Source of the DNA: an uncultured Pseudomonadota bacterium
Lineage (GTDB): Bacteria; Vulcanimicrobiota; Vulcanimicrobiia; Eremiobacterales; Eremiobacteraceae
Reading direction: 5' to 3'
Length of the DNA: 64,000 bases
Assembly: GCA_963736005.1 (NCBI GenBank)
Contig: CAVTNB010000001.1
Coordinates: 1 to 64,000 of the forward strand
The position numbers and the translations under genes are program-made. Below, piece after piece: positions 41,814-62,300 of this stretch. A model generated the notes under the pieces. It did no database searches, was not told the origin of the DNA, and worked only from the letters and a program-made list of their open reading frames with translations. Numbering within the stretch: position 1 is the first letter of the stretch; each line of letters opens with the position of its first letter.

Positions 41814-44800
41814 TTACAGCTTCACCTGGAGCGTCACATATGCTTGAAACGGAATCTTCGTCCCCAAGAATTGCGTATTGTTGTTTCCGTTTTGCACCGT
41901 GTAGGGAAACGCGTAGTTCGGATCTCCGGCTGCGCTGGAGAACGTGCTCGAATTGGGCGCCACGCTGAACGGGAGCGTTGTGTACGTGCAAAAGTCTGCG
42001 CGATCCCAAGGGTAACCGCGCTGATGGCACGCGTCGACAAGGCCGGTCATCGCCAGGGTGAGTTGTGCGGCGTTCGTCAGTGCATAGCCGAGTTGCAGGT
42101 TAGCGGTAATACGCGAGGGCTGCATGAATGCGCCCATATTGTCGAACTTGCCGGTGAAGTCGTCGGGAATTGGGATCGTCGACGAGTTAGCGGTTGCGGG
42201 ATCGCTGCCGATCATGGCAAGCGGTGCCCCGTAAAACGTGCCTGAGGTAAACGTGACCGAAGGCGTTGCCGTGAAGCGTGCATGCTTGTATTGTGCAAGC
42301 AGCGTCGTGGTGATCGGCGGCCCGAAGCCATTGCCTGCGGCGAGCGGTTCTTCAGGCAACACATCATAAGGAACATACGATCCGTTCGGGTCGAAGAGCG
42401 GTTGCACGGGTCTGTTCCAATACGGGTTAGGGGTATCGCCGCCAGCGCAACTTGGGTCCGGGGCGCCGCCCGGCGTGAAGCACTTGGCCGCCCCAGCGCC
42501 CGTGCTCGTGCTGCCGCACACAGCGCTTCCAAATTGCAACTGACCCGCTGCGCTGCCGCCCGCACCGCACGCAGACGTGTAGGCGTTGTACTGTTGCACC
42601 TGATGATTGATGAGGTCGAGCAAATTGAAACCGCTGGCGAACTTAGCGTAGTGGAAACGGCTGTAGTCGTAGGTGAACGCCAAGAGCCCGGAGACTCCGT
42701 CGCTTTGGAAATTGCCTTTCTGAAGCGCGAGTTCAACGCCGAACGATTTCTCGCTCCCCACGTTCACGCCCGATTCGTTGCCGCTCGTGTCGAGCAGGAT
42801 GTTCTCGAATTGTCCCATGGTCCCGCGATAGTACGGCGTCAGCTTGAAGCTCATGTCCGTTCCGTGAAGACGTTGCTCCCACGAAAAATCAACGTTGTGC
42901 GACACATCCGGAACTAAGTCGTGCTGAGGCGAGGTGAAGCCGTACGGAATAAATTTTTGTGCCATGGCCGTTGCGATATCTTGTTGCACCGTTCCGTACT
43001 GCACCCACGAAGCATTCGGCGGTCGAGCATACGTCCCGTACGATGCGCGCAGCGTCGTATCGCCCGAAAGCTGGTACGTTGCGGCCAAACGCGGTTCGAA
43101 GACCGAGTTCGATTCGGTCGAATCGCTCGCCAAGCTGAGCTGGATCGGGCCGCTTCCCGCCGGACACGCACTCGCCGCGCCAGTCGCGGGATCGATGGTT
43201 CGCTGCTGGATCGTAAGATTGGCTGAGGTAACGCAAAACTCGTGGTTCCAAGCATCGATCCAAAACTGACGCGCCGGATAACCATCGGCTTCGTTCACGA
43301 GCCTGTCATCGTAGCGTTCGACGCGCGCGCCTGCGTCCAGCGTCAGCCGATCGTTGGGGCGAAACCGGTCGGCGACCGAAAAGGCAGTAAGGATGGGACT
43401 GACTTGGTTGATGAGGCCGCCCAACCCATTTTCGGTTACGATCCAACGGGCGCCGTTTGTTGCGGCCGGCGTTCCAGCACCCGCGGTGGTGAACGGATCG
43501 AAAACTCCCGAGTTGACGTTCAGGGTCGCCTGCGAGGCCGATGAAAAACAGCTCGTGTACGCCCCGCTCGATTGGTCGTAGCAGTGTATGCCGTCCGTGT
43601 AGCTTCCAATCAAGACGCTGCCGAGAAAATTGCCACCGATCTGTCCGTTAGCTGTCGTTCCGCCACCGAGCAAGAAGTCGAAGCCCGAAGAGTAGCGGTA
43701 CTCTTTCGAACTGGCGATTGACGTCGACAGCGTGAGGAGATGCTTGTCGCTGAGTTGATCCGCCAAGGCGATGCTTCCGCCGAACGTGATTTCAGGCAAA
43801 ATGTATTGCAGGGTTGAGGGTACGGGAATGGGGTCTTCGATGAACCAGTTTGAATACGAACTAAAACCCAAGATGCGCAAGTACGCGTGCGTGCCGATGT
43901 TATGCTGATACTGCAGCTTCGTAAGACTGAACCCATTGTCTGCAACCGCGCGAAGGTTAAGACTGACCGTGCTTTGGAAGCTTCGCATGGCATCTGGCGT
44001 GTCGGGAAAGAGGTACTGACCGACCGCCGCGGTGTTCAGGGGCGCGAAGACCTGACCCGTGTAGATGTATTGATCCGGATACGCAAACGTCGTGCCGAAG
44101 GTTGCTTTCCCACCGAAATCACCAAATGATCCGTACGTAAAGGTGTGCAGGTCGCTTTCAACGTGGAGGAGTTGGAGGTCATCGCTTCCGCTGTCGCTGC
44201 TGTGCGGGATTGCGTAGTGGAGATTGATGACCGATTCGCGATCGCGCGTCTGCGATGCGCCCAGCGTCGTGCCGGGGAGATCAATGGGAGCGCCACTCGC
44301 AGTGAACTGAAATGACGGAAAAAAGAAGCCCGATTGGTTGAGACTCGCGCCGTTGAACGGATCGACGAAGCGATATGACTGATAGGCTAAGGCGCTTGCG
44401 ATGTAATAGGTGAAGCGGTCGTTGGGTGAAGCTCCGCCGTATTCCAACGCGCCTTTTTGGTATCCCGCCGGGAAACCGAAACCGTACGTCAGAGAGCCGA
44501 ACGGTATGCGCGTTCCGGTCTTGACAACCTGATTCACGTAGCCGCTGATGCCTTGGCCATCCGAGCTTGCCGTTGCGCCGCCCGTGTACACTTGCAATTC
44601 TTGCTGACCGAGGTTAGTCAGGAGCGCCTCGGGTGCATTGTCGTAGGAACGGTTCACGGGAACGCCGTCAAACTCATATCCGATTTGGTCTTGATCGCCG
44701 CCGCGGATAAAGATCGGCTGATACCATCCCTGCTGACCTTGCGGAACGTAAACGCCAGGCACTGCAGCAAGCGCGCTGTAGGCTTGATCAACACCGCCCG

Positions 44801-45272
44801 GTCCGGCAAGCGGCAACGCGGCCTTTGCAGCTTCTGGCGTCACCGAGTAAAGATCGATAGTCTGGCCTGGGCGCACCAAACCAATCCCTGTTCGCGCGAC
44901 CACTCGTCCAAGCGATTTCACCTCAGACATCATGGTGATGTTGAGGTTGAGCTGCACGTCGGCTTGAATCGTCACCCCGGTTTGCGAATATGGCTGATAG
45001 CCGTCCTTCGTGGCGCTCAACGTGTATGTATCGGGAGAAAGCGAAAGGAACGTATAGCGACCCCGCGCATCGGTCATCGTGCCGGCGGAGCCCGAAGGGG
45101 CGATCATGTGAACTTGGACGCCGGAAAGCGGCGCCGCTGTCGTCGCATCATCGATGCGACCACTAATGCCGCCGGTGGTTCCGCCAAGAATCGGTATGCA
45201 CCAAGCAAAGATGGCGGCGCCCGCCACGAAGGAGACAATAAGACGCACTGCGCGGCTCGCTTTGGATTGCAT
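41814..45272 (-). CDS. TonB-dependent receptor with carboxypeptidase regulatory-like N-domain
   Basis: GTTGGISGRI; IRGGDQDQIGYEFDGVPV plug; EPRLAATY; C-terminal beta strand. Confidence 0.88.
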   Translation of the reverse strand: MQSKASRAVRLIVSFVAGAAIFAWCIPILGGTTGGISGRIDDATTAAPLSGVQVHMIAPSGSAGTMTDARGRYTFLSLSPDTYTLSATKDGYQPYSQTGVTIQADVQLNLNITMMSEVKSLGRVVARTGIGLVRPGQTIDLYSVTPEAAKAALPLAGPGGVDQAYSALAAVPGVYVPQGQQGWYQPIFIRGGDQDQIGYEFDGVPVNRSYDNAPEALLTNLGQQELQVYTGGATASSDGQGISGYVNQVVKTGTRIPFGSLTYGFGFPAGYQKGALEYGGASPNDRFTYYIASALAYQSYRFVDPFNGASLNQSGFFFPSFQFTASGAPIDLPGTTLGASQTRDRESVINLHYAIPHSSDSGSDDLQLLHVESDLHTFTYGSFGDFGGKATFGTTFAYPDQYIYTGQVFAPLNTAAVGQYLFPDTPDAMRSFQSTVSLNLRAVADNGFSLTKLQYQHNIGTHAYLRILGFSSYSNWFIEDPIPVPSTLQYILPEITFGGSIALADQLSDKHLLTLSTSIASSKEYRYSSGFDFLLGGGTTANGQIGGNFLGSVLIGSYTDGIHCYDQSSGAYTSCFSSASQATLNVNSGVFDPFTTAGAGTPAATNGARWIVTENGLGGLINQVSPILTAFSVADRFRPNDRLTLDAGARVERYDDRLVNEADGYPARQFWIDAWNHEFCVTSANLTIQQRTIDPATGAASACPAGSGPIQLSLASDSTESNSVFEPRLAATYQLSGDTTLRASYGTYARPPNASWVQYGTVQQDIATAMAQKFIPYGFTSPQHDLVPDVSHNVDFSWEQRLHGTDMSFKLTPYYRGTMGQFENILLDTSGNESGVNVGSEKSFGVELALQKGNFQSDGVSGLLAFTYDYSRFHYAKFASGFNLLDLINHQVQQYNAYTSACGAGGSAAGQLQFGSAVCGSTSTGAGAAKCFTPGGAPDPSCAGGDTPNPYWNRPVQPLFDPNGSYVPYDVLPEEPLAAGNGFGPPITTTLLAQYKHARFTATPSVTFTSGTFYGAPLAMIGSDPATANSSTIPIPDDFTGKFDNMGAFMQPSRITANLQLGYALTNAAQLTLAMTGLVDACHQRGYPWDRADFCTYTTLPFSVAPNSSTFSSAAGDPNYAFPYTVQNGNNNTQFLGTKIPFQAYVTLQVKL

Positions 45273-45361: not shown

Positions 45362-46732
45362 ATGCCGACCATCGCTTCGGAACGAGGCGCGAAGAAGCTC
45401 CCCCAGCGGTCCGTTGAAGGGGTCCAGGTAGCTCAAGAGATCGTGTGCCGCGTCTTCGCGGGCGTGCATGCCGGCATATCGGTCGTCCTTGCCGACGGCA
45501 CGGTTCTGCGCGAGCCGGATGAGCCTCTTGAGGCTACGATCGTCCTCAATCACCCAGCCGTCCTGCGAGCGCTGCTCAGACGAACCTCTGATCTCGGGGC
45601 CGGCGAAGCGGTCGCGCGCGGCGATCTCGACGTCGAGGGTGATATCGAGCGCGGACTCGCGGCGATGGACATCGTCGCCGATACGCGTACGCCCAAAGAG
45701 TGGATAGCGATCGCAGCGCTCGCGACGAAGCTGCCGGCGCCTCCACGCGAACCGGTGATCCGAGATGGCCGTCGCCCCGCGCGGCTTCGCGGTCGGGTAC
45801 ATTCGCTCCAGCGGGATCGCGAGGCGATCGCCTACCACTACGATGTCTCGAACGACTTCTATGCGCTGTGGCTCGATGAGAGTATGACGTACTCGTGCGC
45901 GTACTTCCAAGATCAGGCTGATACGCTCGACCGCGCGCAACGCAATAAGCACGACCTCATCTGCCGAAAACTCCGCCTCCGCAGCGGCGAGCGTCTGCTT
46001 GACGTTGGTTGTGGTTGGGGAGGCCTTGCGAGATTCGCGGCGCGAGAGTACGGCGTCAGCGTCGTTGGCGTCACCTTGAGCCGAAGGCAGGCCGAATACG
46101 CACAGGCTCGCAACGCCCGAGAAGGTCTCGAGCGGCGGTGTCGGATTGAGCTGCTGGATTATCGCGAGCTTGCCGCCCTTGGAGCGTTTAATAAAGCGGC
46201 GAGCGTCGGCATGGTCGAGCATGTGGGCGACGCCAACTTGGGCGAGTACTTCGACGCGGTGTTTTGTGCCCTCGTGCCCGGGGGACTCTTCCTCAATCAT
46301 GGCATCATCACGCAGCAGGCGAAAGCCACAGGCGTGCGAGCGTTTGCCGAGCGTTTTTTCCCGCGTCGGTCGCGTTTTACAGAAAGCTACGTGTTCCCCG
46401 ACGGTGAAATGCCTCACTTGCCCGTGATGGCTGAGGCTGCGCAACGCGCCGGCTTCGAACTGAGAGACGTCGAGAACCTCCGCGAACACTATGCGCAGAC
46501 GCTTCGTCATTGGGCACAGCGCCTTGCTGCGAGGGAGGCCGCAGCGCGATCTATCGTCGGTGACTCCACCTACAACGTCTGGCGCTTCTGGCTCGCAGGG
46601 TCTGCGCACAGCTTCGCAATAGGCCGCCTTGGGGTGGTGCAGATGCTGCTTGCAAAGTGGACGGCGGACGCGCGGGCGCATGTACCCGCGACACGCGCCG
46701 ACATCTACGCCGGCCCTCTCGCCGGAAAATAA
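45362..46732 (+). CDS. cfa: Cyclopropane-fatty-acyl-phospholipid synthase family methyltransferase
   Basis: IAYHYDVSNDFY; MTYSCAYF; LLDVGCGWG; SVGMVEHVG; YVFPDG; HYAQTL. Confidence 0.92.
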   Translation: MPTIASERGAKKLPQRSVEGVQVAQEIVCRVFAGVHAGISVVLADGTVLREPDEPLEATIVLNHPAVLRALLRRTSDLGAGEAVARGDLDVEGDIERGLAAMDIVADTRTPKEWIAIAALATKLPAPPREPVIRDGRRPARLRGRVHSLQRDREAIAYHYDVSNDFYALWLDESMTYSCAYFQDQADTLDRAQRNKHDLICRKLRLRSGERLLDVGCGWGGLARFAAREYGVSVVGVTLSRRQAEYAQARNAREGLERRCRIELLDYRELAALGAFNKAASVGMVEHVGDANLGEYFDAVFCALVPGGLFLNHGIITQQAKATGVRAFAERFFPRRSRFTESYVFPDGEMPHLPVMAEAAQRAGFELRDVENLREHYAQTLRHWAQRLAAREAAARSIVGDSTYNVWRFWLAGSAHSFAIGRLGVVQMLLAKWTADARAHVPATRADIYAGPLAGK

Positions 46733-46781
46733 CGACCGGTGGCGGGTCCGAGCTAGAGCGCAGTCGAAAGCCCTCGTCGCT

Positions 46782-48248
46782 ATGGCTGCTGAAGTAATGA
46801 AGACGCTGTTTTTGAATCCGCCGAGCTATGAGGGTTTTGACGGCGGGGCCGGCGCGCGCTACCAGGCGCGGCGTGAGATTCAAGTCGTTCTGGTATCCGA
46901 CTTGGCTGGCGCAGCCCGCCGCGATGGTTCCCGGCAGCCGGCTGATCGATGCGCCGCCCGATGGGCTTACCGTGGATCAAGTGGCTCCGCTGGCCAAGGA
47001 TTACGAACTGGCCGTGCTGCACACCAGCACGCCGTCGTTTCCCAACGACGCGAAATTTGCCGCGCACCTAAGGAAGTAGAATCCCAAGATCATGGTCGGC
47101 ATGGTCGGCGCGCACGTCGGCGTGCTGCCGCTGCAGTCCATGAACGCCGCGCCGGCGGTGGATTGGGTGGCGGTCGGCGAGTTCGATTATATCTGCGCGG
47201 ACATTGCCGCGCGCAAGCCGCTGCAAGGATGTTGGCGGCATCGCCTATCGCGATAACGGGCGCGTCGACGTTCACGCCGCCGCGGCCCACGATTGAGAAC
47301 ATGGATGAGCTGCCGTTCGTCGATGGACGTCTACAAGCGCGACCTGACGATTGAAAACTATTTCATCGGCTATTTGCAGCATCCCTACGTGTCGCTCTAT
47401 ACGGGGCGCGGATGCCGGTCGAAGTGCACGTTCTGCCTGTGGCCGCAGACGCTGGGCGGGCATCGCTATCGCGTGCGCAGCGCGGACAACGTGGCAGCGG
47501 AAATGGCGCTGGCGAAGAAATATTTCCCGCAGGTGCGCGAATTTTTCTTCGACGACGATACGTTCACCGACGATCTGCCGCGCGCCGAAGAAATCGCGCG
47601 GCGACTCGGGCAAGCTGGGCCTGACCTGGTCGTGCAACGCGAAGGCCAACGTGCCGCGCAAGACGCTCGAAATCATGAAGGACAACGGGCTGCGCCTGCT
47701 GCTGGTTGGCTACGAATCCGGGAACCAGCAGATTCTGATCAACATCAAGAAAGGCGTGCGCCTGGATATCGCGCGCGAGTTTTCGCGCAACGCGAAGGAA
47801 CTGGGAATCAAGATTCACGGCACGTTCATCCTCGGACTTCCCGGCGAGACGCCGGAGACGATCCGCGAGACCATCCGGTTTGCGTGCGACATCGATCCGG
47901 AAACGATTCAGGTTTCGCTCGCCGCGCCCTATCCGGGCACCGAACTCTACCGCCAGGCGCAGGAGCAGGGCTGGCTGCAGAATGCAGAGCGGCGAACTGG
48001 TGGATCACGCACGGCATTCAGACCGCGGCGATGAATTATCCGGGCCTGAGCTCGACGGTGATTTTCAATTCGCGTCGAGGAGTTTTACCGGAAGTTTTAT
48101 TTCCGCCCGCGCAAGATGTTCTCGCTGTTCGGCGGAATGCTGCGCGATCCGCGAAGTGATGAAGCGGCGGCTGCGCGAGGGCGTCGAATTCTTCAAGTTC
48201 CTGCGCGAACGAAAAGACGAGCGTCCGTCCGTGAAGCTGGGCGCGTAG
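46782..48248 (+). CDS. hpnJ: Hopanoid-associated radical SAM protein HpnJ, with multiple frameshifts
   Basis: KTLFLNPPSYEGFDGGAGARYQARRE / SFWYPTWLAQPAA / GRGCRSKCTFCLWPQT / IHGTFILGLPGET / RRLREGVEFF, spread across several frames. Confidence 0.85.
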
Positions 48249-48250
48249 CG

Positions 48251-49060
48251 CTACTCCGTGTAACCGAGCATGTAGATTCCAAGCGCCATAGCGAAAAAAG
48301 TCCACAGCGTCGCGCCCAGACGACCCTTTAAGATTCCCCCATCCGCCAGAAGTTTCGCCGCCGCAAATCCCAAGCCCACAACGGAAAACCACAGGTGCTC
48401 GTGCTTGACCTCGCTCATGGAGGCCATCAAGGTCTTCATAACGGGGTTGGAGGACATTGCCGCATTAGACATGTGCTGCATTAATTGTTGCGTTTCTGGT
48501 CCACCATGCTTGTGGAAGAAAAGGAAGATGGCGCCAAAAACCGCGAGGCTCGGAACAGCATAGACCCGCAGCAAGGGCGGCAGGCGGTCCGCCGCGCGAA
48601 GTAATTCGATAATCGCGAGCAACAGCAGGAGAAGCACAAAAGCGCGGTGCTGTTGCACCGAAGGGTCGGCAAAACTGATCCAAAACCCGTAGGGGCCATT
48701 CGGCCAAGTCTTCGGGTCGTTGCGCAGAACCAGGAATTCTACCAATCCGAACAACATGAGCGGCGGCACAAAACGTACCCATGTGCGGCGCGGCCACTGC
48801 AAACCGGCGAACAGCGCGGTCAATCCCCACAAGAACAGAAAAAAACCGGCGCCCCGGTGATTGAACACCGACCACTGTGTGCCCGAGACAGGCGTTGCCG
48901 GAAGCATCTCTGGGTTCTGCATGGTCTGGCTGGATTGCATGGTACCCATTGGCGTGGGAGTCGGCGTCGAGTCGCCCTTGGCGGCGGACAAAGAGAAATA
49001 TCCAAAAAAAATGCAGGGAAGTATGAGGGCGACCGTTATTACGCGACCGCATCGGATCAT
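48251..49060 (-). CDS. Multi-pass membrane protein with His motifs and Met-rich segments (putative Cu/heme binding)
   Basis: About six TM segments; FNHR, QQHR, FFHKHGG, KHEHLW. Confidence 0.7.
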   Translation of the reverse strand: MIRCGRVITVALILPCIFFGYFSLSAAKGDSTPTPTPMGTMQSSQTMQNPEMLPATPVSGTQWSVFNHRGAGFFLFLWGLTALFAGLQWPRRTWVRFVPPLMLFGLVEFLVLRNDPKTWPNGPYGFWISFADPSVQQHRAFVLLLLLLAIIELLRAADRLPPLLRVYAVPSLAVFGAIFLFFHKHGGPETQQLMQHMSNAAMSSNPVMKTLMASMSEVKHEHLWFSVVGLGFAAAKLLADGGILKGRLGATLWTFFAMALGIYMLGYTE

Positions 49061-49102
49061 CAGTGACTCCTTGATTAAGACGAAGCCGAGCTTGCCGTAC
49101 AG

Positions 49103-49828
49103 TTACTGTTGTGGAAATCCCTTTTCAGAACAGGTTTCGCAACCTTCGTGCGTCGGAGCAATACCTGGCAGGCGAACGGTAAAACTAGCCCCATGCGAGC
49201 TTGAGGCGGCAGCGGTGACCAAGCCGCCGTGCGCTTCGACGAGTTGCTTGACGATCGCGAGTCCGTAGCCCGAACCGTCGGTGTCAGCGCTCGCTAACCC
49301 TCGGACACCGGCTTCGAATACCTCGTTGACCTCGCTTTCGCGTATGCCCGGTCCGCTGTCGGAAATGCGGACCTGCAACTGATCGCCTGGGTGGTCGCAG
49401 TCCACAGACACGGTGCCGCCCCGCGGCGTGTAGCGGACGGCGTTGAGCAAAATATTTTTGACGATTTGCCCGATGCGGGCTGGGTCGCCGTAAAACTGCG
49501 CGCACCTCGCCGACGGCATCGCACAGCGATGAATGGAGACCTTTATGTCCTTGGCGCGCGCGACTGCCTCGATTGCGGCGTATTCGTGGTCGAGGAGCTC
49601 GCAGACGTTCATGAGGGTCGGGTGCAGCGACATCTGTACCTTTGGGCCAATGTCACCCAGGTCGTCGATAAGCGAATCGAGCTGGCTGAGCGCTTGAAGG
49701 ATGCCGAGCAGCCGCTCGGGAGTGGGAGCGAATTTGCCGTCGATGAGACCTTCCAGATTCGCCTTCGCCACTGCGAGCTCGTTGCGCATTTCGTGGATCA
49801 ATTCCGCGAGCTGTGTTGGTGCTTTCAT
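49103..49828 (-). CDS. Cytoplasmic histidine kinase lacking a sensor domain
   Basis: H-box IHEMRN at residues 11-16; NILLNAVRY; DSGPGI; GSGYGLAI; tail HEGCETC. Confidence 0.88.
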   Translation of the reverse strand: MKAPTQLAELIHEMRNELAVAKANLEGLIDGKFAPTPERLLGILQALSQLDSLIDDLGDIGPKVQMSLHPTLMNVCELLDHEYAAIEAVARAKDIKVSIHRCAMPSARCAQFYGDPARIGQIVKNILLNAVRYTPRGGTVSVDCDHPGDQLQVRISDSGPGIRESEVNEVFEAGVRGLASADTDGSGYGLAIVKQLVEAHGGLVTAAASSSHGASFTVRLPGIAPTHEGCETCSEKGFPQQ

Positions 49829-49838
49829 CGTGTATCCC

Positions 49839-50579
49839 TCAAGCCTGCGGGTTCTTCGCCATCTTGTAGCCCACTCCAAACACCGTCAAGACGTACTTCG
49901 GATTCGCGGGTTCGACCTCGACTTTATGCCGCAGATTTGCGATGTGACGGTCAAGCGTGCGGTCAAACACTTCGAGATCATCTGCCCTGGTGGCATCGAG
50001 GAGTTGCGAGCGCGTGAAAGTCCGCCCAGGATGCGTGGCCAGGGCTTCGAGGATGCGAAATTCTGTTGGCGTCAGCGAAACTTCCTGACCGCCAATCCAC
50101 ACCTCATGGTTTTCGGGATCGATACGAAGGTCGCCGATGACGAGCAGCGGCGCGTTCTGTTGCCCCGCATTCGTCAGCGCGCTGTTATGCGTCGGGGGTG
50201 GCTGAGAGTTTCCGGAGCGCCGCAGGACGGCCTTGACTCGTGCGACCACTTCGCGCGGACTGAAGGGCTTGGTGATGTAGTCGTCAGCACCAAGCTCGAG
50301 ACCGATGATTCTATCGATCTCATCCGTCCGCGATGTGAGCATGAGAATCGGCGTATCAGCCTCGGCCCGCATGAGACGGAACACATCGAGGCCCGACATT
50401 TCCGGCAGCTTGAGATCCAAGATCACGAGGTCCGGCCGGTGCGAATTGAACGTTTCCACTGCCTGGCTTCCGTCATGGGCCTTGCTGACAATGAACCCCT
50501 CGTCGGTGAGATACCGTTCCAGCACCTCGACGATCTTGGGTTCATCGTCCACCAGGAGTATTTTTTTAGCCTCGGCCAC
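49839..50579 (-). CDS. OmpR/PhoB-family response regulator
   Basis: ILLVDDE; LDLKLP; GADDYITKPF; LTVFGVGY. Confidence 0.95.
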   Translation of the reverse strand: MAEAKKILLVDDEPKIVEVLERYLTDEGFIVSKAHDGSQAVETFNSHRPDLVILDLKLPEMSGLDVFRLMRAEADTPILMLTSRTDEIDRIIGLELGADDYITKPFSPREVVARVKAVLRRSGNSQPPPTHNSALTNAGQQNAPLLVIGDLRIDPENHEVWIGGQEVSLTPTEFRILEALATHPGRTFTRSQLLDATRADDLEVFDRTLDRHIANLRHKVEVEPANPKYVLTVFGVGYKMAKNPQA

Positions 50580-50614
50580 GAGTGTTCATTCGTGGCCGAG
50601 GACGGGTTCCACTA

Positions 50615-51778
50615 CTAGTGCAGCGCACCAATCGTCGTGGCGTACCATAGCTGGCCCTGAAACGTCGGAGTTGCCCCTTGATTCAGAGATGCCTGGAGGT
50701 TGAAGATCAAGCCGTTGGCGTTTCTGTCGGTGACGTGATGATTCACAAACCACACGGCGTTGACGTAGTTATAGTGCGTTGAGGTTCCCAGCCCATCGTT
50801 CGTATACTCGTTGCGATAGGATAGGATCACCTGATTGTTCAGCACCGGTTCCCAGGCTTCCGCGGTATAGGCCGTTGACGTCGCGGCTCCTAAACCAGCG
50901 CCAGCGTGGCCATCATAGCCGCGCTGGTAGACAACCAGTGCGCCAGGGAATCCCCGGGTAGGATCCACTTCGGCATAACCCGCCGCGCCGTTGTAGCGGT
51001 CGATTTGTCCATCGGAAGTTTGAAACGTTCCGGTGCCGCCATAAGCGCCGATCTCAACCGGTTTGTATCCTTGCGCGTCGACCACTCGCCATTGGACGGT
51101 TTTTTCGGTGCTCGAACTCCAATCAAGCGCGCCGTTGGTACCACCAATGTCTCCGCTGGGTCCCAGATAACCAATTTCGGCTGTCAACCAGTCATGCGTG
51201 TACGCGAGCTTGCTTCCCCATCGATTGGTGGAGAAGGGCCACACGTGCTCTCCAACGGTGATCGCCGGCGTATTGAATGCCGCTAGGTCGAAGAACTGAC
51301 TGTATGGCGACGGTGCTGGCGCTTCGATCTTGCCGACAAACAAGTGGCCATCACGATGCAACAGATTGTTGTACGTCACCCACATCGTATCGTAGAAGCC
51401 GGAGCCGTCGTGCGATTGGATCCAGCCATGGAAGTGATAGGTCCAATCATCGCCGATGTAGCCAGCCCCGTGCACCGAGAGGTTACCCCATATAAGTGAA
51501 TGCGGTTCCGTCGGATCTCCGGTATCGTAGGTTACCTGCTCGCCGACCCAGATCGGCATAGCGTGGCGGATCGTTGCGGAATCCAGCGACGCGTACCCGG
51601 TTCGTTGGACGTAACGGCCATAGGCGTTTAGCGCGGGGACGACGGTATGGCAGACCTGGCAATCCATACCGTACGCCTGCGCAAAAGGCGGCATAGCCTG
51701 GGTGGGCCGCACCGCCTCAATCACCCAGGTTAGCGCGAAGAGCCAGGCGATCAGAATGGTCGCGCGCCGGAACTTCAT
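50615..51778 (-). CDS. Monoheme cytochrome c fused to a putative outer-membrane beta-barrel (Cyc2-like)
   Basis: Signal peptide, then MPPFAQAYGMDCQVCHTVVPALNAYGR, similar to the Cyc2 N-terminal PxFAR..CxxCH..P.L..GR pattern; remainder is aromatic/Gly-rich beta strands. Confidence 0.7.
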   Translation of the reverse strand: MKFRRATILIAWLFALTWVIEAVRPTQAMPPFAQAYGMDCQVCHTVVPALNAYGRYVQRTGYASLDSATIRHAMPIWVGEQVTYDTGDPTEPHSLIWGNLSVHGAGYIGDDWTYHFHGWIQSHDGSGFYDTMWVTYNNLLHRDGHLFVGKIEAPAPSPYSQFFDLAAFNTPAITVGEHVWPFSTNRWGSKLAYTHDWLTAEIGYLGPSGDIGGTNGALDWSSSTEKTVQWRVVDAQGYKPVEIGAYGGTGTFQTSDGQIDRYNGAAGYAEVDPTRGFPGALVVYQRGYDGHAGAGLGAATSTAYTAEAWEPVLNNQVILSYRNEYTNDGLGTSTHYNYVNAVWFVNHHVTDRNANGLIFNLQASLNQGATPTFQGQLWYATTIGALH

Positions 51779-52140
51779 GGCGTGACAACAACGGTCAGCG
51801 TCATATCAGCATGACCGGGCCCACACACCACCGCGCAATGCAGAACGTACGTTCCGGGCTTGGTTGGCGTGAAGGTAACGAGCTCAAAGCCGCTCGGGGA
51901 GATGGTCGTTTTTGCAATGCCAAGATCGTTTGACTCAAGACCATGGACCCCGGATGAAGAAGTCAGACGAAGCGTGGTCGGCTCGTTGACGGGGATGGTA
52001 ATCTTCGCCGGGGTAAACTTCCAATTCGATGCCACAATGTCGATGGTTGGATGCGCAAGTGCTATGCTCGCAGCGACCACCACCACACCGACGCTCGCGA
52101 CGAGCGCCCAGATAACCTTATGAAATGCTCGATTCGTCAT
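51775..52140 (-). CDS. Secreted stand-alone CuA-type cupredoxin
   Basis: AAGGAG RBS; signal peptide ending ALA; VHGL...HCAVVCGPGHADM gives the full H/CxxxCxxxHxxM ligand set. Confidence 0.8.
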   Translation of the reverse strand: MTNRAFHKVIWALVASVGVVVVAASIALAHPTIDIVASNWKFTPAKITIPVNEPTTLRLTSSSGVHGLESNDLGIAKTTISPSGFELVTFTPTKPGTYVLHCAVVCGPGHADMTLTVVVTP

Positions 52141-52273
52141 TTTCCGGTATCTCCTTATAGTCATTAACTTAACGAACGTTCTTGATAAAAGTGTCGGCCC
52201 AAGCATGCCATAAGGCGGTCCAGGGGGTGTGAATTGGATATGAAGGCACGAGAAAAGTCGCCGTTCCTTCACA

Positions 52274-53905
52274 TCACCACGTTCTCATACCTGGCGCGCC
52301 GTAGGGATGGGCGGCGATGAGGTCGTGGACCGGGCCGGCATAGGCAAGGAACGCGAACACCACGGCAACCACGGCCCAGACGCCAATTCGATCCAGGAGG
52401 GGAGAGGTTACGAGCGCCTCGGGTTCGACCGTTGCGAAAACGATGGGATCTGTCTCCGTCTTTGGCGTGAAGAGCGTGCCCACGGCCACTGCGACAAACA
52501 TCAGAATACTCAAGAACAGAATGGAACCGCCGATTGCGGCCCAGTGCATTTCGGGCATCCACGCGGCCGCAGTGGTCGAGCCAAAGTAACTGACCTCATC
52601 CGTGCGTCGAGGCGATCCCAAGATGCCGGCCCAGTGCATGGCAGTCGACATGATCATCATGCCGATGAACCACGCATACGTTTGCGCAAGCGCCAAGCCC
52701 GGCGCCCATAACTTGCGCCCGGTGAGCCGTGGGATCAGCCAGTACGACACCCCGAGAAAAGACAATGCCACTGGACCACCCACCGTCACGTGAAAATGCC
52801 CGACAATCCACATCGTGTTATGCACGATCGTGTCCATGGCGTACGACGCGTTGATCACCCCGCCGAGACCGCCAAAAATGAAGAGCAGCATCCCTAAGGC
52901 AGGGCCGCTGAACGCGGGGTTCTTCCACGGCAGCCAAGCGATCGTCGCAAAGAATCCTTTGACGCCGCCACGCTGGGCTGCGAGTTCGAACGACGCGAAC
53001 ACGGCAAAGGCAGTGAGAATCGACGGGATGACGACGCCATAGGTCGTCATGGTGTGCACCCACTTCCAGTCTGAGGAGATTCCCGGCTCCATGAACTCGT
53101 GGTGCAGACCAACCGGCGTTGACAGCAAGAGCAGAAGAATGAACGTGAGTCTGGTCAATGAATCGCTAAAAACTCTTCCGTTGTAGAGTCGGGGCACGAT
53201 GTTGTACCAGATCAAATACGCACCCATGATCCAGAAGTAGACGAGCGGATGTCCAAAATACCAAAACAGCATGCGCGTGAACATAACGTTCACGGTTGGC
53301 ACCAAGTTGAGCGACCACGGGATGAGGAAAAAGAGCATCTCCGCCGCGACGCCTAGCGTTGCGATGAACCACATCACAAATGTGGTCACCGAACCATGAA
53401 CCACCAGCGGCAGTCGCTCGCCTGGGTGATTTCGCCCAAACCATAACGCATTGCCAGCCAGATCGATGAGCACGATCCAGGTTCCAACGACAAGCAGCGT
53501 GGCGCCGATATAAAACCACGGGCTGGCCTTCAGTGGGGCGTAAAAGGTGTAGAGTACGCTGGCGCTGCCGGAGAGAATCGCGATGGCAGCCATCGCGGAG
53601 CCAATGGCCATGACCCAAAAGGCGAGCCACCCGATGGTGAGGGAGCGGTTGCGCGGGATGGCGCGGTACACCATGAGCGTTGCGAGACCGCAGATGAAGA
53701 ACGTGGTGAAGACAATAGCGTTGAGCACGCCGTGGGCCGTGAGCATGCGATAATAGTCAAACCAGGAGGGCAGACGCAGCCAACTCGCCCGCGAGAGCGC
53801 TTGGAACAAGCCGAAGCTCGCGCCGACCATAAGGGCGATCGTCGCAAAGTAGATGTGGGCGATAATAAGCCGATTCTCACGTTGTACGAGCGGCTGATCC
53901 ATCAT
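52274..53905 (-). CDS. cbaA: ba3-type (B-family) heme-copper oxidase subunit I
   Basis: YYRMLTAHGV; YTFYAPL; LFWYFGHPLVY; GLHH; WIVGHFH; G.PRR. Confidence 0.93.
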   Translation of the reverse strand: MMDQPLVQRENRLIIAHIYFATIALMVGASFGLFQALSRASWLRLPSWFDYYRMLTAHGVLNAIVFTTFFICGLATLMVYRAIPRNRSLTIGWLAFWVMAIGSAMAAIAILSGSASVLYTFYAPLKASPWFYIGATLLVVGTWIVLIDLAGNALWFGRNHPGERLPLVVHGSVTTFVMWFIATLGVAAEMLFFLIPWSLNLVPTVNVMFTRMLFWYFGHPLVYFWIMGAYLIWYNIVPRLYNGRVFSDSLTRLTFILLLLLSTPVGLHHEFMEPGISSDWKWVHTMTTYGVVIPSILTAFAVFASFELAAQRGGVKGFFATIAWLPWKNPAFSGPALGMLLFIFGGLGGVINASYAMDTIVHNTMWIVGHFHVTVGGPVALSFLGVSYWLIPRLTGRKLWAPGLALAQTYAWFIGMMIMSTAMHWAGILGSPRRTDEVSYFGSTTAAAWMPEMHWAAIGGSILFLSILMFVAVAVGTLFTPKTETDPIVFATVEPEALVTSPLLDRIGVWAVVAVVFAFLAYAGPVHDLIAAHPYGAPGMRTW

Positions 53906-54363
53906 TGCACCGCGACCGAGCCGTACATGAAATGATGCCCCGCGCCACAGTATTCATTGCAGAGCAACAAATACGTGCCAGCCGTGCGGAACGTATGCGT
54001 CGCTTCACTGACCCATCCCGGAATCACCATGAGGTTGACCGCAGTGTTCGGGATAAAGAATCCATGCACGACATCCGGACTCGTCGCATAAAACGTCACC
54101 GTCGAGCCGACGGGAACCGCGATCGTTGACGGTTGGAATGAAAAGATGTGCGCGATCACATAGTCGTCGTATTGGTGCGCGCCCGTTTGGTGCAGGCCAG
54201 GCTTGTCAAAAGGCGCTGTCTGAGCCACTTTCGTTGGATCGATAATCTGCATGTGGCTCGGCGGTGCGATGTCGTCGTGCAAGGCCGCGACCCCCATGAT
54301 GCCCAGAAAAACCACCAGCGTGACGATGCCAAAAATCATCCACGCGCGCTCTGATTTGTGCAT
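53902..54363 (-). CDS. cbaB: ba3-type oxidase subunit II (CuA)
   Basis: MHKSERAW plus a single TM; SPDVVHGF; CNEYCGAGHHFM. Confidence 0.92.
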   Translation of the reverse strand: MHKSERAWMIFGIVTLVVFLGIMGVAALHDDIAPPSHMQIIDPTKVAQTAPFDKPGLHQTGAHQYDDYVIAHIFSFQPSTIAVPVGSTVTFYATSPDVVHGFFIPNTAVNLMVIPGWVSEATHTFRTAGTYLLLCNEYCGAGHHFMYGSVAVQ

Positions 54364-54375
54364 GCTTCTCCCGGC

Positions 54376-54501
54376 CTACCAGCGTTGCAGCAGCAAGTGG
54401 AACATAAGCAACCAGACGATCACAAGCGCGGCGCCCAGAATGCTGACAAACTTGATTGTGGCCGGCAATGAAAATTGACCCGGCTCCGGGGTATTTTTCA
54501 T
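54376..54501 (-). CDS. cbaD: Probable ba3 oxidase subunit IIa (41 aa, not in ORF track)
   Basis: MKNTPEPGQFSLPATIKFVSILGAALVIVWLLMFHLLLQRW*: a single TM helix immediately upstream of subunit II. Confidence 0.7.
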   Translation of the reverse strand: MKNTPEPGQFSLPATIKFVSILGAALVIVWLLMFHLLLQRW

Positions 54502-54504
54502 GCT

Positions 54505-55014
54505 CTAGATAATAGTCCGCTGGATTTCGCGCTCCTCTTTTCTGACATAGCTCGTCTGTTTATGGGGATGCTCAGCCGGTGCGGCATGGCAGACAAGCAC
54601 CGGAATGTGCGAGCGGCGCAAGATGCCTTCTGCGACGCTGCCGAGGAATGCCCGCGGGATGCCGCTTCTGCCATGACTGCCGATGACGATGAGATCCGCA
54701 TTGCGCTGACGCGCCAATTGGAGCACGGAAGAAACGCACTCGTCCTCGGGCTGCTCAAAAGATGCTTGGACATTGGCTTTTTCGGCCCAAGCTCGAGCAT
54801 CGTCTAAGATAGCGCTCCCAGCTTTGCACGCCGCGTCGATTGCCAAACCTGGATCTATCCCCCCCGGTCCGGTCATTGCGACCACTTTGTTTAACTCCAC
54901 AGCATGGACGAAAACAACCTCTGCCCTATTCTCACGCGCAATTCGCAGCGCGAGTTCAATAGCGGCGTCCGAGGGTTTCGATCCGTCAATCGGCACGAGT
55001 ATCTTGCTAAACAT
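54505..55014 (-). CDS. Universal stress protein (UspA family)
   Basis: FSKILVPIDGS; ADLIVIGSHGRSG...LGSVAEGILR. Confidence 0.92.
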   Translation of the reverse strand: MFSKILVPIDGSKPSDAAIELALRIARENRAEVVFVHAVELNKVVAMTGPGGIDPGLAIDAACKAGSAILDDARAWAEKANVQASFEQPEDECVSSVLQLARQRNADLIVIGSHGRSGIPRAFLGSVAEGILRRSHIPVLVCHAAPAEHPHKQTSYVRKEEREIQRTII

Positions 55015-55176
55015 GGCGTTCCTCGCTCTCCAGAACACATAACTTCGTATCGCGTGGCTTTAGTATGCGTCCCACATATCCAGATCGAGCGAACGAGAGA
55101 TGAAGAAGGACGATTTCGAAGGGCGGAACGGTCAAGGCGGGTCTTGATTTTCCACTTACTTTGTGGTACAAAGTAA

Positions 55177-59317: not shown

Positions 59318-62300
59318 CTACAGACTAATCTTCGCCGTGAAGACCGCCTGCAGGGGCGATAGGAGCGGGTTTGGTTGGTACGGGAACTCGACCATTGGCT
59401 GGAACGTCGAGCCCGGATTGTAGATGTTCGCACCGTATTTCAGCGGTGCGCCGTAGCCTGGTAGATTGTAACCGCCTGAGCCAGTGGCTGAACCTCCACC
59501 CGCGCAACTCTTCGGCGCGCCAACTGTCCATGGTTCGGCGCTTCCGCCGAAGCAGGTATTGACAATGTTGGCCACATTCATCGCAAATGAGATGCGCGAC
59601 GAGGCTTGGTACGAGAGCTGGGCATGTAATAGTAGTTGGTTGGGCTGATGGAATGCACCGATACTGTCGAAGACGTGCGTGTAGGGATCGGGTATCGCAA
59701 CGGTACCTGTGCACTGGGTCGCATCGAAGGGCGTGCCCGTGCCACCGTATGGATAGCGCGGATCGCCGCTCACCGATGATGTAAGACCTGCCGGACAATC
59801 GGCGGGGTTGACGCCGTAGCCGCTCAGTGGGTCGCCGTAGTTGCCTCCCGACAGGAATTGCAACTGCGGCGAGATGGCCCATCTGTTGACCTTGTAGTTG
59901 AGCACGAGCGCGATTGTGTTCGGCACTTCGTACCCGTTTGCGGCGGCTTCAATGCCGCCTGGAATTGTGGCGAACGGGACGTAGCTTGCGCTCGGATCGA
60001 GTCGCGCTTGCACCGGTGCATTGAAATACGGGTTCGCCACGCCAGACGCTTCTGTCGCGATGGCGTTGGTTCCACCGAACGTTCCGCACAAGCTCGTCGT
60101 GCTCGAGTTGGCTGCGACACCTTGGCAGGCTTTTGTGAACGAGTTGTACTGCTGGATCGCGATATTGATCGTGTCGAGCACCGTACCACCCGTGCCAAGA
60201 GGTTTGAACTTGATGGTGCTGTGGTTGTACGTGTAGGCGAGCAACGCGGACAAGCCGTTTTGATTGAAGTTCCCCAAGTTGAGCTGGAACTCCACGCCGT
60301 CGGACGTCTGCTGACCAACGTTGAGGCCTGACACGAAGTTCGTCTTTTGGTTGAGGTAGAAGTTCTGGATCTGGTTCTGGGTGGTCCGGTAGTACGGCGT
60401 CAGCTTAAAGCTGGCTTGCGTCCCCTGGAACTGGTGTTCCCATGACAGATCGTAGTTGTCCGACGTCGGCGGGTAGATCGTATGCGTCGTCGTCGTGAAG
60501 CCGATCGGCCAGAAGTTGTTGGCCAGATAGGCGGGCAGGTCTTGTTGTAGCAAATTGTACTGTTCGAACGCGGTGTTGGGTGCCTGATCGTACCGGCCGG
60601 CGCTAAAGCGGAACACGTTGTCTTGGTTCGCCGTGAACGTCGCGCCGAGACGCGGCTGGAAAACCCAGAACCTCTCCGTGTCGTTCGGCAGGTTCGTCAT
60701 GGTCGCAGGCGTCGATTGAACTCCGTTGACCAGCGGACATGCTTGACCCACTCCGGCGTCGTTTGCGCTATTGTAGAACGGCACTTGACCGCCGCCAGGC
60801 AATACGCAATACGAGTTGTTCCATGCGTTGAACCAGAACGGGCGGGCGAGCGTCGCTGGAGACCCCGCAACCGCGTTCGTATCTGATAGTCCGTAGAAGA
60901 ACCTATCGTACCGAAGGCCGAGGTTGATAAACCATTGGCTGCTCGGTTTGATCTGGTCAGTCACAACGAACGATCCGAAGTTCGGCTGCGCGGAGTTGCC
61001 GCCACCGTAGCGGCCGTTCTCCGCTACCCACCACTCGCACGGTCCCGACCCGCATGACGCGGGAAGCGCAGGCAGTGGGGCGCCAGCGTGTGCCGCTGCC
61101 AAACCGAGCGCCAACGCGTTTGCCGAGTAGCAGCTTACCGCTGCGCCTGCAGCATTGTAGCAGATACCAGCACTTGGATTCTTCGCATTCACCGCGTATG
61201 CAAATGAATCGGCTCCGGTGTTCGGGTTGAGTCCGACCAGCTCGTTGATCATTGTCTCGTCGTTCGCACGATAGTCGATCGCGGCGAAGTCGGAGAGCTG
61301 GACGGTCAAGAGGTTCTTGTCGTTCAGCTGATCGCCGTATTGCATGCTGCCGCCGTTCGTGTTCGTCTTCACGTAATAGTTGAACGGGCAGTAGCCGATG
61401 AAGTTTGACGCCAGTGTGATGGGGCACGTCTGAGGCCATTCCGAGTAGTTTGAGAAGCCATAGATCGCGGAAGTACGCTTGGGAGCCGAAGTTGTGTTGA
61501 TACTGCAGTTTGAGAATGTTGTTTGGGTTGGCTGTTCCATCACGCTGGTTAAAGGGGATGGTCAACAAGCCGGTGCCGATGCTATTCGGGTTATACGCGA
61601 AGTAGACCGGTTCGTCATTTGCCTGTAGTCTGCCACAAGTGGTTCGCCCACAGAGCCAAGGTACTGAAAGCCTAACCCAAGACTGCCCGAAAGATAGGGA
61701 AACGCCGGCGCTCCGAATGCCGCCTGATAAGCCGGATTCGAGAATCCCCAGTCTGAGGACGAGCTATAGTAGAATTGGTTGAGATACGAAGTGTCGTAGA
61801 GCAACTGGATGTCGTCTTTGCCCGCGTCATTTCTGTGCGGGATGCCAAAGTGCAAGTTGATGACGTTCTCTCGGTCGTAGGAACTTGCCACGGTGTTCGC
61901 GTCGCCGCTATCCTGCGGAGGACCTAGCAGGTATCCACCAGGACCGATACCCGTCGCATAGCACGACGCGAAGTTCTGTTGCACAGCCAACGAAGCGGTC
62001 GCGCAACCTCCGGCCGGCGTGAGTTTTGCGAACGGTGCACCCCACTCGGATTGAAGGCTCGCGCCGTTGTTCTGATCAACAAACCTGAAGCCTTGGGCAG
62101 TATTTGTGCTCGCAACGTAATACGAGAAGTTGCGGTCAGGCGTCGCCCCGCCTACCTCGAAATTGTAGCCGTTATACAGGGTCGGCGTGCCGATGCCCAT
62201 GCTGAGCGTCGAGAATCCGGGATACGTTCCAGACTTAATGACCTGGTTGATATATCCCGATAGACCTTGGCCTTGCGCGTCTGCAGGCGCGGCCCCCGTA

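Follow-up and report, generated by a model that had tools for sequence, protein, structure and literature searches.

A 64,000-nucleotide stretch of contig CAVTNB010000001.1 (assembly GCA_963736005.1, Eremiobacteraceae), here called the window, carries between positions 48,251 and 55,014 nine genes, all on the minus strand, in the order usp, IIa, cbaB, cbaA, CuA protein, barrel protein, response regulator, histidine kinase and membrane protein. This order agrees by coordinates with an initial annotation made from the sequence, which had read the cluster as a candidate system for extracellular electron uptake or Fe(II) oxidation. The conserved core of the locus is a haem-bearing beta-barrel (hereafter the barrel) together with a periplasmic redox carrier, in this host a free CuA protein. 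We consider it probable that this core forms part of an electron wire across the envelope, induced at low oxygen and running in one direction or the other; the narrower reading, that the wire runs inward and feeds a ba3 oxygen reductase, we put at a probability of roughly 0.4.

Gene content and predicted folds

Intergenic distances, in the same order, are 3, 12, -4, 133, -4, 35, 10 and 42 nt. The overlapping or short junctions described earlier thus hold for most of the cluster, the exception being cbaA and the CuA gene, which lie 133 nt apart; since that gap contains an operator-like repeat, the CuA and barrel genes are probably transcribed from a promoter of their own. A scan for sigma-70 promoters and terminators stayed at or near the shuffle level (3 versus 3.5; 12 versus 7.0 +/- 2.5). 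Family scans matched Usp, COX2, COX1, Cupredoxin_1/COX2, Response_reg with Trans_reg_C, and HisKA with HATPase_c; the barrel, IIa and the last membrane protein had zero significant matches in the Pfam and NCBIfam scans.

The universal stress protein gene usp (54505..55014; Pfam PF00582, E 6e-29) lies 3 nt ahead of a gene for a 41-residue protein with one hydrophobic helix (54376..54501), which we name probable ba3 subunit IIa from its gene position, shared by homologues in related loci. CbaB, subunit II (53902..54363), matches Pfam COX2 and has the CuA ligands H100, C135, E137, C139, H143 and M146. CbaA, subunit I of a B-family haem-copper O2 reductase (52274..53905), aligns over its full length with Thermus ba3 subunit I (E about 1e-118) and keeps H268/H269 and H370/H372, H219/Y223, and Y230, Y234, S295 and T298, which we take to be metal ligands, the cross-link pair and K-channel residues, respectively. 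Enzymes of the ba3 type are high-affinity oxidases. The six histidine ligands, the His-Tyr pair, the K-channel and a CuA-bearing subunit II are all found, which upholds the ba3 assignment of the initial annotation (family criteria, and the role of S309, from the available text of PMC11214002). Elsewhere the host genome encodes a cytochrome b/c complex and a caa3 subunit I gene with an apparent frameshift near its 3' end (C1:448342-450093); cytochrome bd was not found in this incomplete genome.

The secreted stand-alone CuA protein (51775..52140; 121 residues from its ATG) has a Sec-type signal, read from the sequence, and no other anchor. Its ligands H66, C102, C106, H110 and M113 belong to a set of five CuA side-chain ligands (H...CxxxCxxxHxxM) invariant in 66 of 66 proteins of its family, and its model matches Thermus CuA with a TM of 0.88, so that the soluble CuA protein proposed earlier stands. 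The usual Glu/Gln carbonyl position is occupied by Val in the window protein and by Ile or Val in 63 of the 66 family members, which would fit a free carrier, and 46 of the 66 have a His at or beside the predicted mature N-terminus.

Overlapping the CuA gene is that of the predicted monohaem cytochrome-porin (50615..51778; 387 residues), with a signal peptide (recognised in sequence and model by a hydrophobic helix at the N-terminus and an AxA site), CxxCH at 40-44, a PxL and a 16-strand beta-barrel. The AlphaFold2 model (pLDDT 88.9) has a small CxxCH domain followed by 16 long strands; Foldseek retrieved general porins for it, and the VIA structural search placed OprP at the top (Z 24.3, root-mean-square deviation 3.0, 280 aligned residues; runner-up 22.1), which backs the CxxCH/beta-barrel protein of the initial annotation. 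Sequence searches of Pfam, NCBIfam and the PDB with the barrel gave no match, and the ESM Atlas returned unnamed clusters, one with 20% Porin_O_P. In a family alignment of 115 of the 120 members listed among 456 homologues (2,817 candidates), CxxCH and PxL are present in 115 of 115, a Met at the predicted mature N-terminus is invariant, and four histidines, apparently lumen-facing by strand alternation, are conserved (H103 in 91%; H115, H145 and H178 in 100%); M29 and these histidines may provide a distal ligand and substrate sites. On its predicted fold, we envisage the barrel as an outer-membrane pore, with the putative c-type haem domain presumably lying at the periplasmic opening. A cultured member of the Eremiobacterota possesses an outer membrane, according to the available text of PMC9758169, and the named barrel homologues are Eremiobacterota wherever a taxon is stated. 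Haem c maturation in the lineage is of the System II type, with resB at a contig end and PF01578 in 58 of 61 genomes; on these grounds a missing CcsA in the host genome was rejected as an assembly gap.

Carrier pairing across the phylum

The barrel profile matches 219 of 301 sampled genomes of the phylum (E<=1e-10), nearly all from one class, and an ortholog (E<=1e-60) is present in 142 of 226 genomes of that class. The tallies 219/301, 122/301, 70/301, 60/301, 58/61, 41/61 and 12/41 include a few unpublished genomes (G128, G233, G238, G246, G248, G264 and G301), which are excluded from the counts on synteny, operator, co-occurrence, carriers and kinase orthologs. Neighbourhoods were compared at 80 barrel loci, hand-picked from 150 listed of 495 matches in favour of high scores and different genera and thus neither random nor independent (L026 and L027 encode an identical protein). 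In 63 of them the gene immediately upstream, in the same orientation, encodes a CuA protein (16/17 in the host's own family, 45/61 in the largest family, 2/2 in the third), and a carrier stands beside the barrel or is fused to it in 77 of 80 (75 from the carrier scan, plus L041 and L057, which have CuA by the synteny count), with none at L061, L077 and L079. At loci lacking CuA, a soluble triheme or monohaem cytochrome c adjoins the barrel, or a cytochrome c is fused to its C-terminus, and haem c cytochromes take the place of the CuA protein in 11 of the 80. Fusions recur in a representative search: a barrel-CuA fusion (P0122) heads a 7-member cluster, one of them named Baltobacteraceae, and several barrel-cytochrome c fusions were found there and at the loci. 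The cluster in the window has no soluble cytochrome c, as first described, and the host genome encodes some elsewhere; among relatives such a cytochrome often stands in for the CuA protein or accompanies it.

Several variants of the pairing are worth recording. The triheme protein is a secreted cytochrome c with three tandem class-I domains, mostly in opposite orientation to the adjacent barrel gene (L044, L048, L049, L055, L056, L063-L070, L072, L073, L076 and L080-L082). Extra CuA paralogues occur at L037, L040, L042, L045, L071 and L078, as tandem CuA-barrel pairs at L040 and L042. At carrier-less L061 (4892-6478) and L077 (6407-6922), a NapH-like 4Fe-4S membrane protein or a 2Fe-2S oxidoreductase subunit is divergently adjacent. 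Genomes hold several paralogous haem-barrels; one such CxxCH-barrel gene in the host (G000:C1:936334-938026; L215:6335-8027) is overlapped by an upstream type-1 cupredoxin lipoprotein gene, a pairing seen at 27 of 27 loci, and the host copy has no operator site (score 5.1).

A predicted complex of barrel, CuA protein and haem scored 0.49 against 0.01 for the best control, with runs at 0.49, 0.61 and 0.00, contact agreement of at least 0% and partner pLDDT of at least 79; the mark is one reached by 116 of 157 solved and 2 of 215 mismatched pairs, with values of at most 0.60 in 18 of the 157 and in both mismatches. The prediction, proposed earlier as a check, lends weak support to contact between barrel and CuA protein.

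It is improbable that the locus serves metal acquisition, with a haem-gated pore or surface reductase importing copper (or iron) and a CuA-fold protein storing copper or delivering it to ba3. The lumen histidines H103, H115, H145 and H178 and the N-terminal His of 46/66 CuA proteins would suit that role, as would the copper requirement of ba3 and the 27/27 loci that pair a paralogous barrel with a type-1 cupredoxin. However, the CuA protein keeps the full electron-transfer ligand set, and its replacement by haem c in 11/80 loci fits electron carriage, not copper delivery. A crude motif scan of the 80 loci for copper-homeostasis and oxidase-assembly genes found one multicopper oxidase, one doubtful PCuAC and no CsoR, CusA, CopC or SCO, and a P-type ATPase of unspecified metal occurs in 5 of 80.

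Electron carriage towards an oxidase is in line with the distribution of ba3, which lies within about 7 kb of the barrel in 24 of 80 loci, including 14 of 17 in the host's own family. By genome, ba3 is found in 97 of 142 ortholog carriers (68%), 11 of 21 intermediate genomes and 13 of 63 non-carriers (21%); we place no weight on a p-value for this co-occurrence because related genomes are not independent. At L032 and L045 a haem-copper enzyme that lacks the cross-link Tyr, putatively labelled nitric oxide reductase (NOR)-like, takes the place of ba3, so that both linked terminal enzymes are electron sinks. The host has such an enzyme at G000:C1:1509195-1512272 (L214), where a NirK-like two-domain copper protein is followed by a CuA subunit II and the Tyr-less NOR-like subunit I; this type also adjoins the CuA-barrel pair at L032 and L045.

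We regard as very improbable a chance assembly in a stress island, with barrel and oxidase not cooperating. Consistent with it, ba3 is non-adjacent in 56/80 loci and the last membrane gene is unlinked elsewhere, and co-regulation alone is no proof of electron exchange; but carrier pairing in 77/80 loci, the fusions, co-occurrence of 68% versus 21% and a shared operator argue for a functional link between barrel, CuA protein and ba3, as the initial annotation supposed.

A shared candidate operator and its putative regulon

The sequence CTTC recurs at a period of 11 upstream of CuA genes in 20 of 56 regions (2-3 for the best shuffled word, 3-6 for random windows, no other period above 5) and gives the consensus CTTCnCA-N4-CTTCnCA. 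A matrix was trained on the 56 CuA-upstream regions with the window and its congener left out, and a cut-off of 12 was applied. The direct repeat ahead of the CuA-barrel pair, an operator candidate for that unit (52228..52245, minus strand, read from 52245 to 52228), scores 14.0 although held out; a weaker repeat upstream of usp (55088..55105, minus strand) scores 10.3, under the cut-off, and the only minus-strand position of the scanned region that exceeds 14.0, at 47808 (15.1), is inside a coding region. Held-out hits were found for 12 of 17 barrels without an upstream CuA gene, 10 of 26 cbaB genes and 9 of 34 usp genes and, in small sets, for 2 of 3 BON and 2 of 9 PNPOx-like genes, against a background of 2% of 3,000 random windows. 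The operator is rare at other sets (1/41 regulators, 1/12 xfp, 0 in small housekeeping sets).

Three of the four best intergenic sites in the host precede PNPOx-like, phosphoribosyltransferase (PRTase) and BON genes, and the fourth precedes an unrelated-looking gene. The PNPOx-like and BON sites lie in a hypoxia-type island (G000:C2:98500-117000; L210, L211) that also holds acetate kinase (ackA), Hsp20, usp, ATP synthase, phosphoketolase (xfp) and acyl-CoA synthetase genes; a PRTase and erythromycin-esterase-family pair (C6:748-3546; L213) has another top site. Universal stress proteins and heat-shock proteins mark the DosR, Lxa and Anr hypoxia regulons, according to the available text of PMC12071387, and by analogy hypoxic induction of the present regulon is what we infer.

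OmpR/PhoB proteins bind 11-bp direct repeats. The OmpR-family response regulator of the cluster (49839..50579; Pfam Response_reg and Trans_reg_C), with a homologue (>=48%) in 25 of 80 loci, is a candidate for binding the repeat. Its neighbour is a cytoplasmic histidine kinase without membrane or sensor domain (49103..49828; Pfam HisKA and HATPase_c), in which C76, C102, C109 and C144, all within the ATPase domain, are invariant in 30 of 30 orthologs (15 of 15 in a smaller set) and have no Cys counterpart in the two PDB alignments compared; some orthologs carry a C-terminal CxxC. The four-cysteine site is a candidate metal or Fe-S redox or O2 sensor. The protein differs from NreB-type Fe-S kinases in that it has no PAS or GAF domain and its cysteines lie inside the ATPase domain. 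The kinase occurs in 60 of 301 genomes and within 17 kb of cbaA in 41 of the 54 genomes with both.

Such a regulon could also have a role without net energy gain, in hypoxia or dormancy, by which the envelope buffers or senses redox state or detoxifies NO, oxidants or redox-active solutes; we hold this to be about as improbable as metal acquisition. Co-regulation with usp and other stress genes would be expected of it, and NirK, a NOR-like enzyme and several paralogous haem-barrels are present in the genome; but the barrel fusions found are to electron carriers and never to a signalling output domain, and the linked oxidase conserves energy and has its K-channel intact.

The last gene of the cluster encodes an uncharacterised membrane protein of 269 residues (48251..49060), co-oriented here. 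It was rejected as part of the conserved module because in other genera it lies away from the cluster, and its description as His-rich does not survive, there being 7 His in 269 residues. Nearby in the window, a plus-strand radical SAM gene (46629-48248), presumably hopanoid HpnJ-like, is broken across several frames, probably by assembly errors, and two minus-strand TonB-dependent receptor-like genes (41814-45272, Pfam-confirmed, and 59318-61543) lie near genes for a cyclopropane synthase, a PGA_cap protein and a Dyp peroxidase.

Relation to Cyc2 and direction of electron flow

Cyc2 combines an N-terminal CxxCH and a PXL with a porin of 16 strands resembling OprO/OprP, and is defined by the motif AXPXFAR[Q/K][T/Y]; three representatives have been tested and all oxidise Fe(II) (available text of PMC8406198). 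The barrel has the same build: a single N-terminal CxxCH, PxL four residues after it, a 16-strand porin and 387 residues, above the minimum of 365. For comparison, a GTDB scan with the Q/T form of the motif gave at least 80 loci and 67 usable proteins, including those of Zetaproteobacteria, Gallionellaceae and Acidithiobacillus cyc2 beside c4-type cytochrome genes; the labels cluster-1-like and cluster-2-like were assigned from organism titles. Profile-profile comparison related the family to cluster-2-like Cyc2 at 96.1% (233 columns) and to cluster-1-like Cyc2 at 94.5% (N-terminus only), and direct hidden Markov model matches to motif-defined Cyc2 span the haem domain only. Nine intermediate proteins, of which several have FARKY-type motifs, form a group that connects the barrels, at 97.7% to the family and 91.0% to cluster 2, and FARKY-type motifs mark the nearest group outside the family in these comparisons. 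In a quick tree (LG+G4; 82 rows: 20/119 family, 14/14 cluster-1-like, 24/53 cluster-2-like and 24 distant), the family is monophyletic (SH-aLRT 100) and is split from the cluster-1-like and cluster-2-like rows by a 100% branch.

On the inward reading, a small reduced solute would enter the pore and reduce the barrel haem, dissolved or organically bound Fe(II) being the leading donor candidate and reduced humic quinones a possible one. The free periplasmic CuA protein would then carry the electron to CbaB of ba3, a task that in relatives may fall to a mono- or triheme cytochrome c, sometimes fused to the barrel C-terminus, and ba3 would reduce trace O2 and build a proton-motive force, giving supplementary energy to mostly heterotrophic soil bacteria. 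The OmpR-family regulator and the four-cysteine kinase would probably switch on barrel, CuA protein, ba3 and the stress and fermentation genes through one operator. We favour inward flow because the tested Cyc2 proteins fit it (available text of PMC13692758) and because the barrel is linked to terminal reductases; Fe(II) oxidation by the barrel itself is a hypothesis.

Several observations weigh against this reading. The strict Cyc2 motif is present in 0 of 115 family members, which have AMPxFA[Q/K/E]AY instead, with Q/K/E and A/S/T at positions 7-8; given that CxxCH, PxL and the fold are kept, the barrel is best described as a divergent, Cyc2-built homologue and, by the published motif, not a member, so that the Cyc2-like label of the initial annotation holds for architecture and remote homology and fails on motif and on placement. 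Comparisons restricted to the barrel are not significant (8.2% for cluster 2, 0.7% for cluster 1), and the family falls outside clusters 1 and 2, the better-validated ones. In the available text of PMC8406198, Keffer et al. screened sequences without the defining motif out of their tree and considered divergent cluster-3 homologues the most uncertain. Synteny with ba3, common in the host's family, is rare elsewhere (10 of 61 loci in the largest family, 0 of 2 in the third), 45 of 142 ortholog-bearing genomes have no ba3 match, and the operator stands at 1 of 21 adjacent cytochrome c genes. The kinase was found in 0 of 59 genomes of the largest genus (9 candidates scored per genome), whose loci nonetheless carry the operator, and hence is not shown to be universal. 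Neither RuBisCO nor NiFe hydrogenase was found in the host genome (84% complete), and near-full-length RuBisCO is not associated with the ortholog (19 of 142 carriers versus 13 of 63), on which grounds a link to autotrophy was rejected. A Nernst estimate puts Fe(OH)3/Fe2+ at 0.30-0.41 V at pH 5, above the CuA potential, which we assume to be near +250 mV, at pH <=5; oxidation of inorganic Fe2+ would thus be uphill in acid soil. Finally, a hypoxia-like regulon fits electron disposal about as well as uptake.

Electron disposal is the substance of the strongest alternative, in which the same wire runs outward: under O2 limitation, electrons of menaquinol would reach the barrel haem through the bc complex and cytochrome c or CuA, and would leave the cell for Fe(III) or humic acceptors. 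This route would branch from that to ba3 at the CuA protein, much as has been suggested for Cyc2 and rusticyanin when Acidithiobacillus grows anaerobically. We think the outward reading rather unlikely, although much is compatible with it. Reduction of Fe(III) from about +250 mV is downhill at pH <=5 (potentials assumed), a cytochrome b/c complex is encoded, hosts mostly lack RuBisCO (19/142), no hydrogenase was found in the 84%-complete genome, and the regulon and neighbours are mostly hypoxia and substrate-level-phosphorylation genes, with 37 of 80 loci having at least one of usp, xfp, ackA, PNPOx-like, BON, Hsp20, acyl-CoA synthetase and P-type ATPase. According to the available text of PMC8790237, A. 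ferrooxidans induces Cyc2 and rusticyanin while respiring Fe(III), and micro-aerobic Fe(III) reduction occurs among acidophilic heterotrophs. However, all three Cyc2 representatives tested oxidise Fe(II), and the linked redox enzymes are acceptor-side (ba3, NOR-like). The 70 commonest neighbour clusters contain no bc-complex or quinol-dehydrogenase family; one locus (L061) has a NapH-like neighbour, and the geometry argued for Cyc2, in the available text of PMC8406198, lets a single buried haem reach small dissolved acceptors only. Inward uptake is therefore slightly favoured over Fe(III) or humic reduction.

A broader proposal, which we consider doubtful, is that much of the main Eremiobacterota class shares an unrecognised hypoxia regulon in which a kinase, sensing O2 or redox state through a four-cysteine metal site in its ATPase domain, commands a Cyc2-type haem-porin, a natural free CuA shuttle and ba3; common acid-soil heterotrophs would then be iron-cycling mixotrophs with a wire that motif-based Cyc2 screens overlook and whose direction, from Fe(II) or towards Fe(III), may vary with pH and O2. 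If inward or outward flow through the wire were true, free CuA would be a third carrier chemistry for Cyc2-type wires, besides type-1 copper and cytochrome c, a widespread and barely cultured soil phylum would gain a route into iron or humic redox cycling, and the role of divergent Cyc2 homologues would have a testable context. Low O2 is the inducer expected from the shared operator, the natural barrel-CuA fusion offers a single-chain construct for biochemistry, and the sensorless four-cysteine kinase is a separate lead to a possible new mode of O2 or redox sensing. Novelty is tempered by published Cyc2-like genes in Eremiobacterota metagenome-assembled genomes from mine drainage and tailings (PMC8357290, PMC13594681), in passages that do not mention carrier, oxidase or regulon; no paper among those listed by the literature searches describes a Cyc2-CuA-ba3 unit, as judged by title or abstract start.

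The closest known system is the rus operon, cyc2-cyc1-cup-coxBACD-rus, which likewise unites an outer-membrane cytochrome-porin, a periplasmic copper carrier and a haem-copper oxidase in one locus (available text of PMC10654088). The present cluster contains none of cyc1, cup, coxBACD (aa3) and rusticyanin; it has CuA in place of type-1 rusticyanin or Cup, ba3 in place of aa3 and no c4 cytochrome, and it occurs in hosts mostly without RuBisCO and within a hypoxia-type regulon. Cyc2 itself (A. ferrooxidans Cyc2, Mariprofundus Cyc2 PV-1, Ghiorsea Cyc2 TAG1, Leptospirillum Cyt572) shares the signal peptide, monohaem CxxCH with PxL and OprP-like barrel, whereas the family described here has AMPxFA[Q/K/E]AY, an invariant Met at the predicted mature N-terminus, conserved lumen histidines and a free CuA partner; CuA or ba3 genes occur in 0 of 80 listed motif-defined Cyc2 loci, within up to 4 kb per side. 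The oxidase resembles Thermus thermophilus ba3 in CbaB, in IIa and in CbaA, which retains the cross-link Tyr, the K-channel and every metal ligand; the donor in Thermus is cytochrome c552 (PDB title 2FWL). Beside the oxidase the window encodes another CuA protein, free of any anchor, which superposes on the Thermus CuA domain (TM 0.88) and differs at the Glu/Gln position, where 63/66 of its family have Ile/Val. The regulon shares universal stress proteins, a small heat-shock protein and a two-component system with the DosR, Lxa and Anr regulons (available text of PMC12071387), but here an OmpR-family regulator and an 11-bp direct repeat stand in place of an 18-bp palindrome or FNR box, the kinase has four cysteines in its ATPase domain and no GAF or PAS domain, and the regulon includes an outer-membrane cytochrome.

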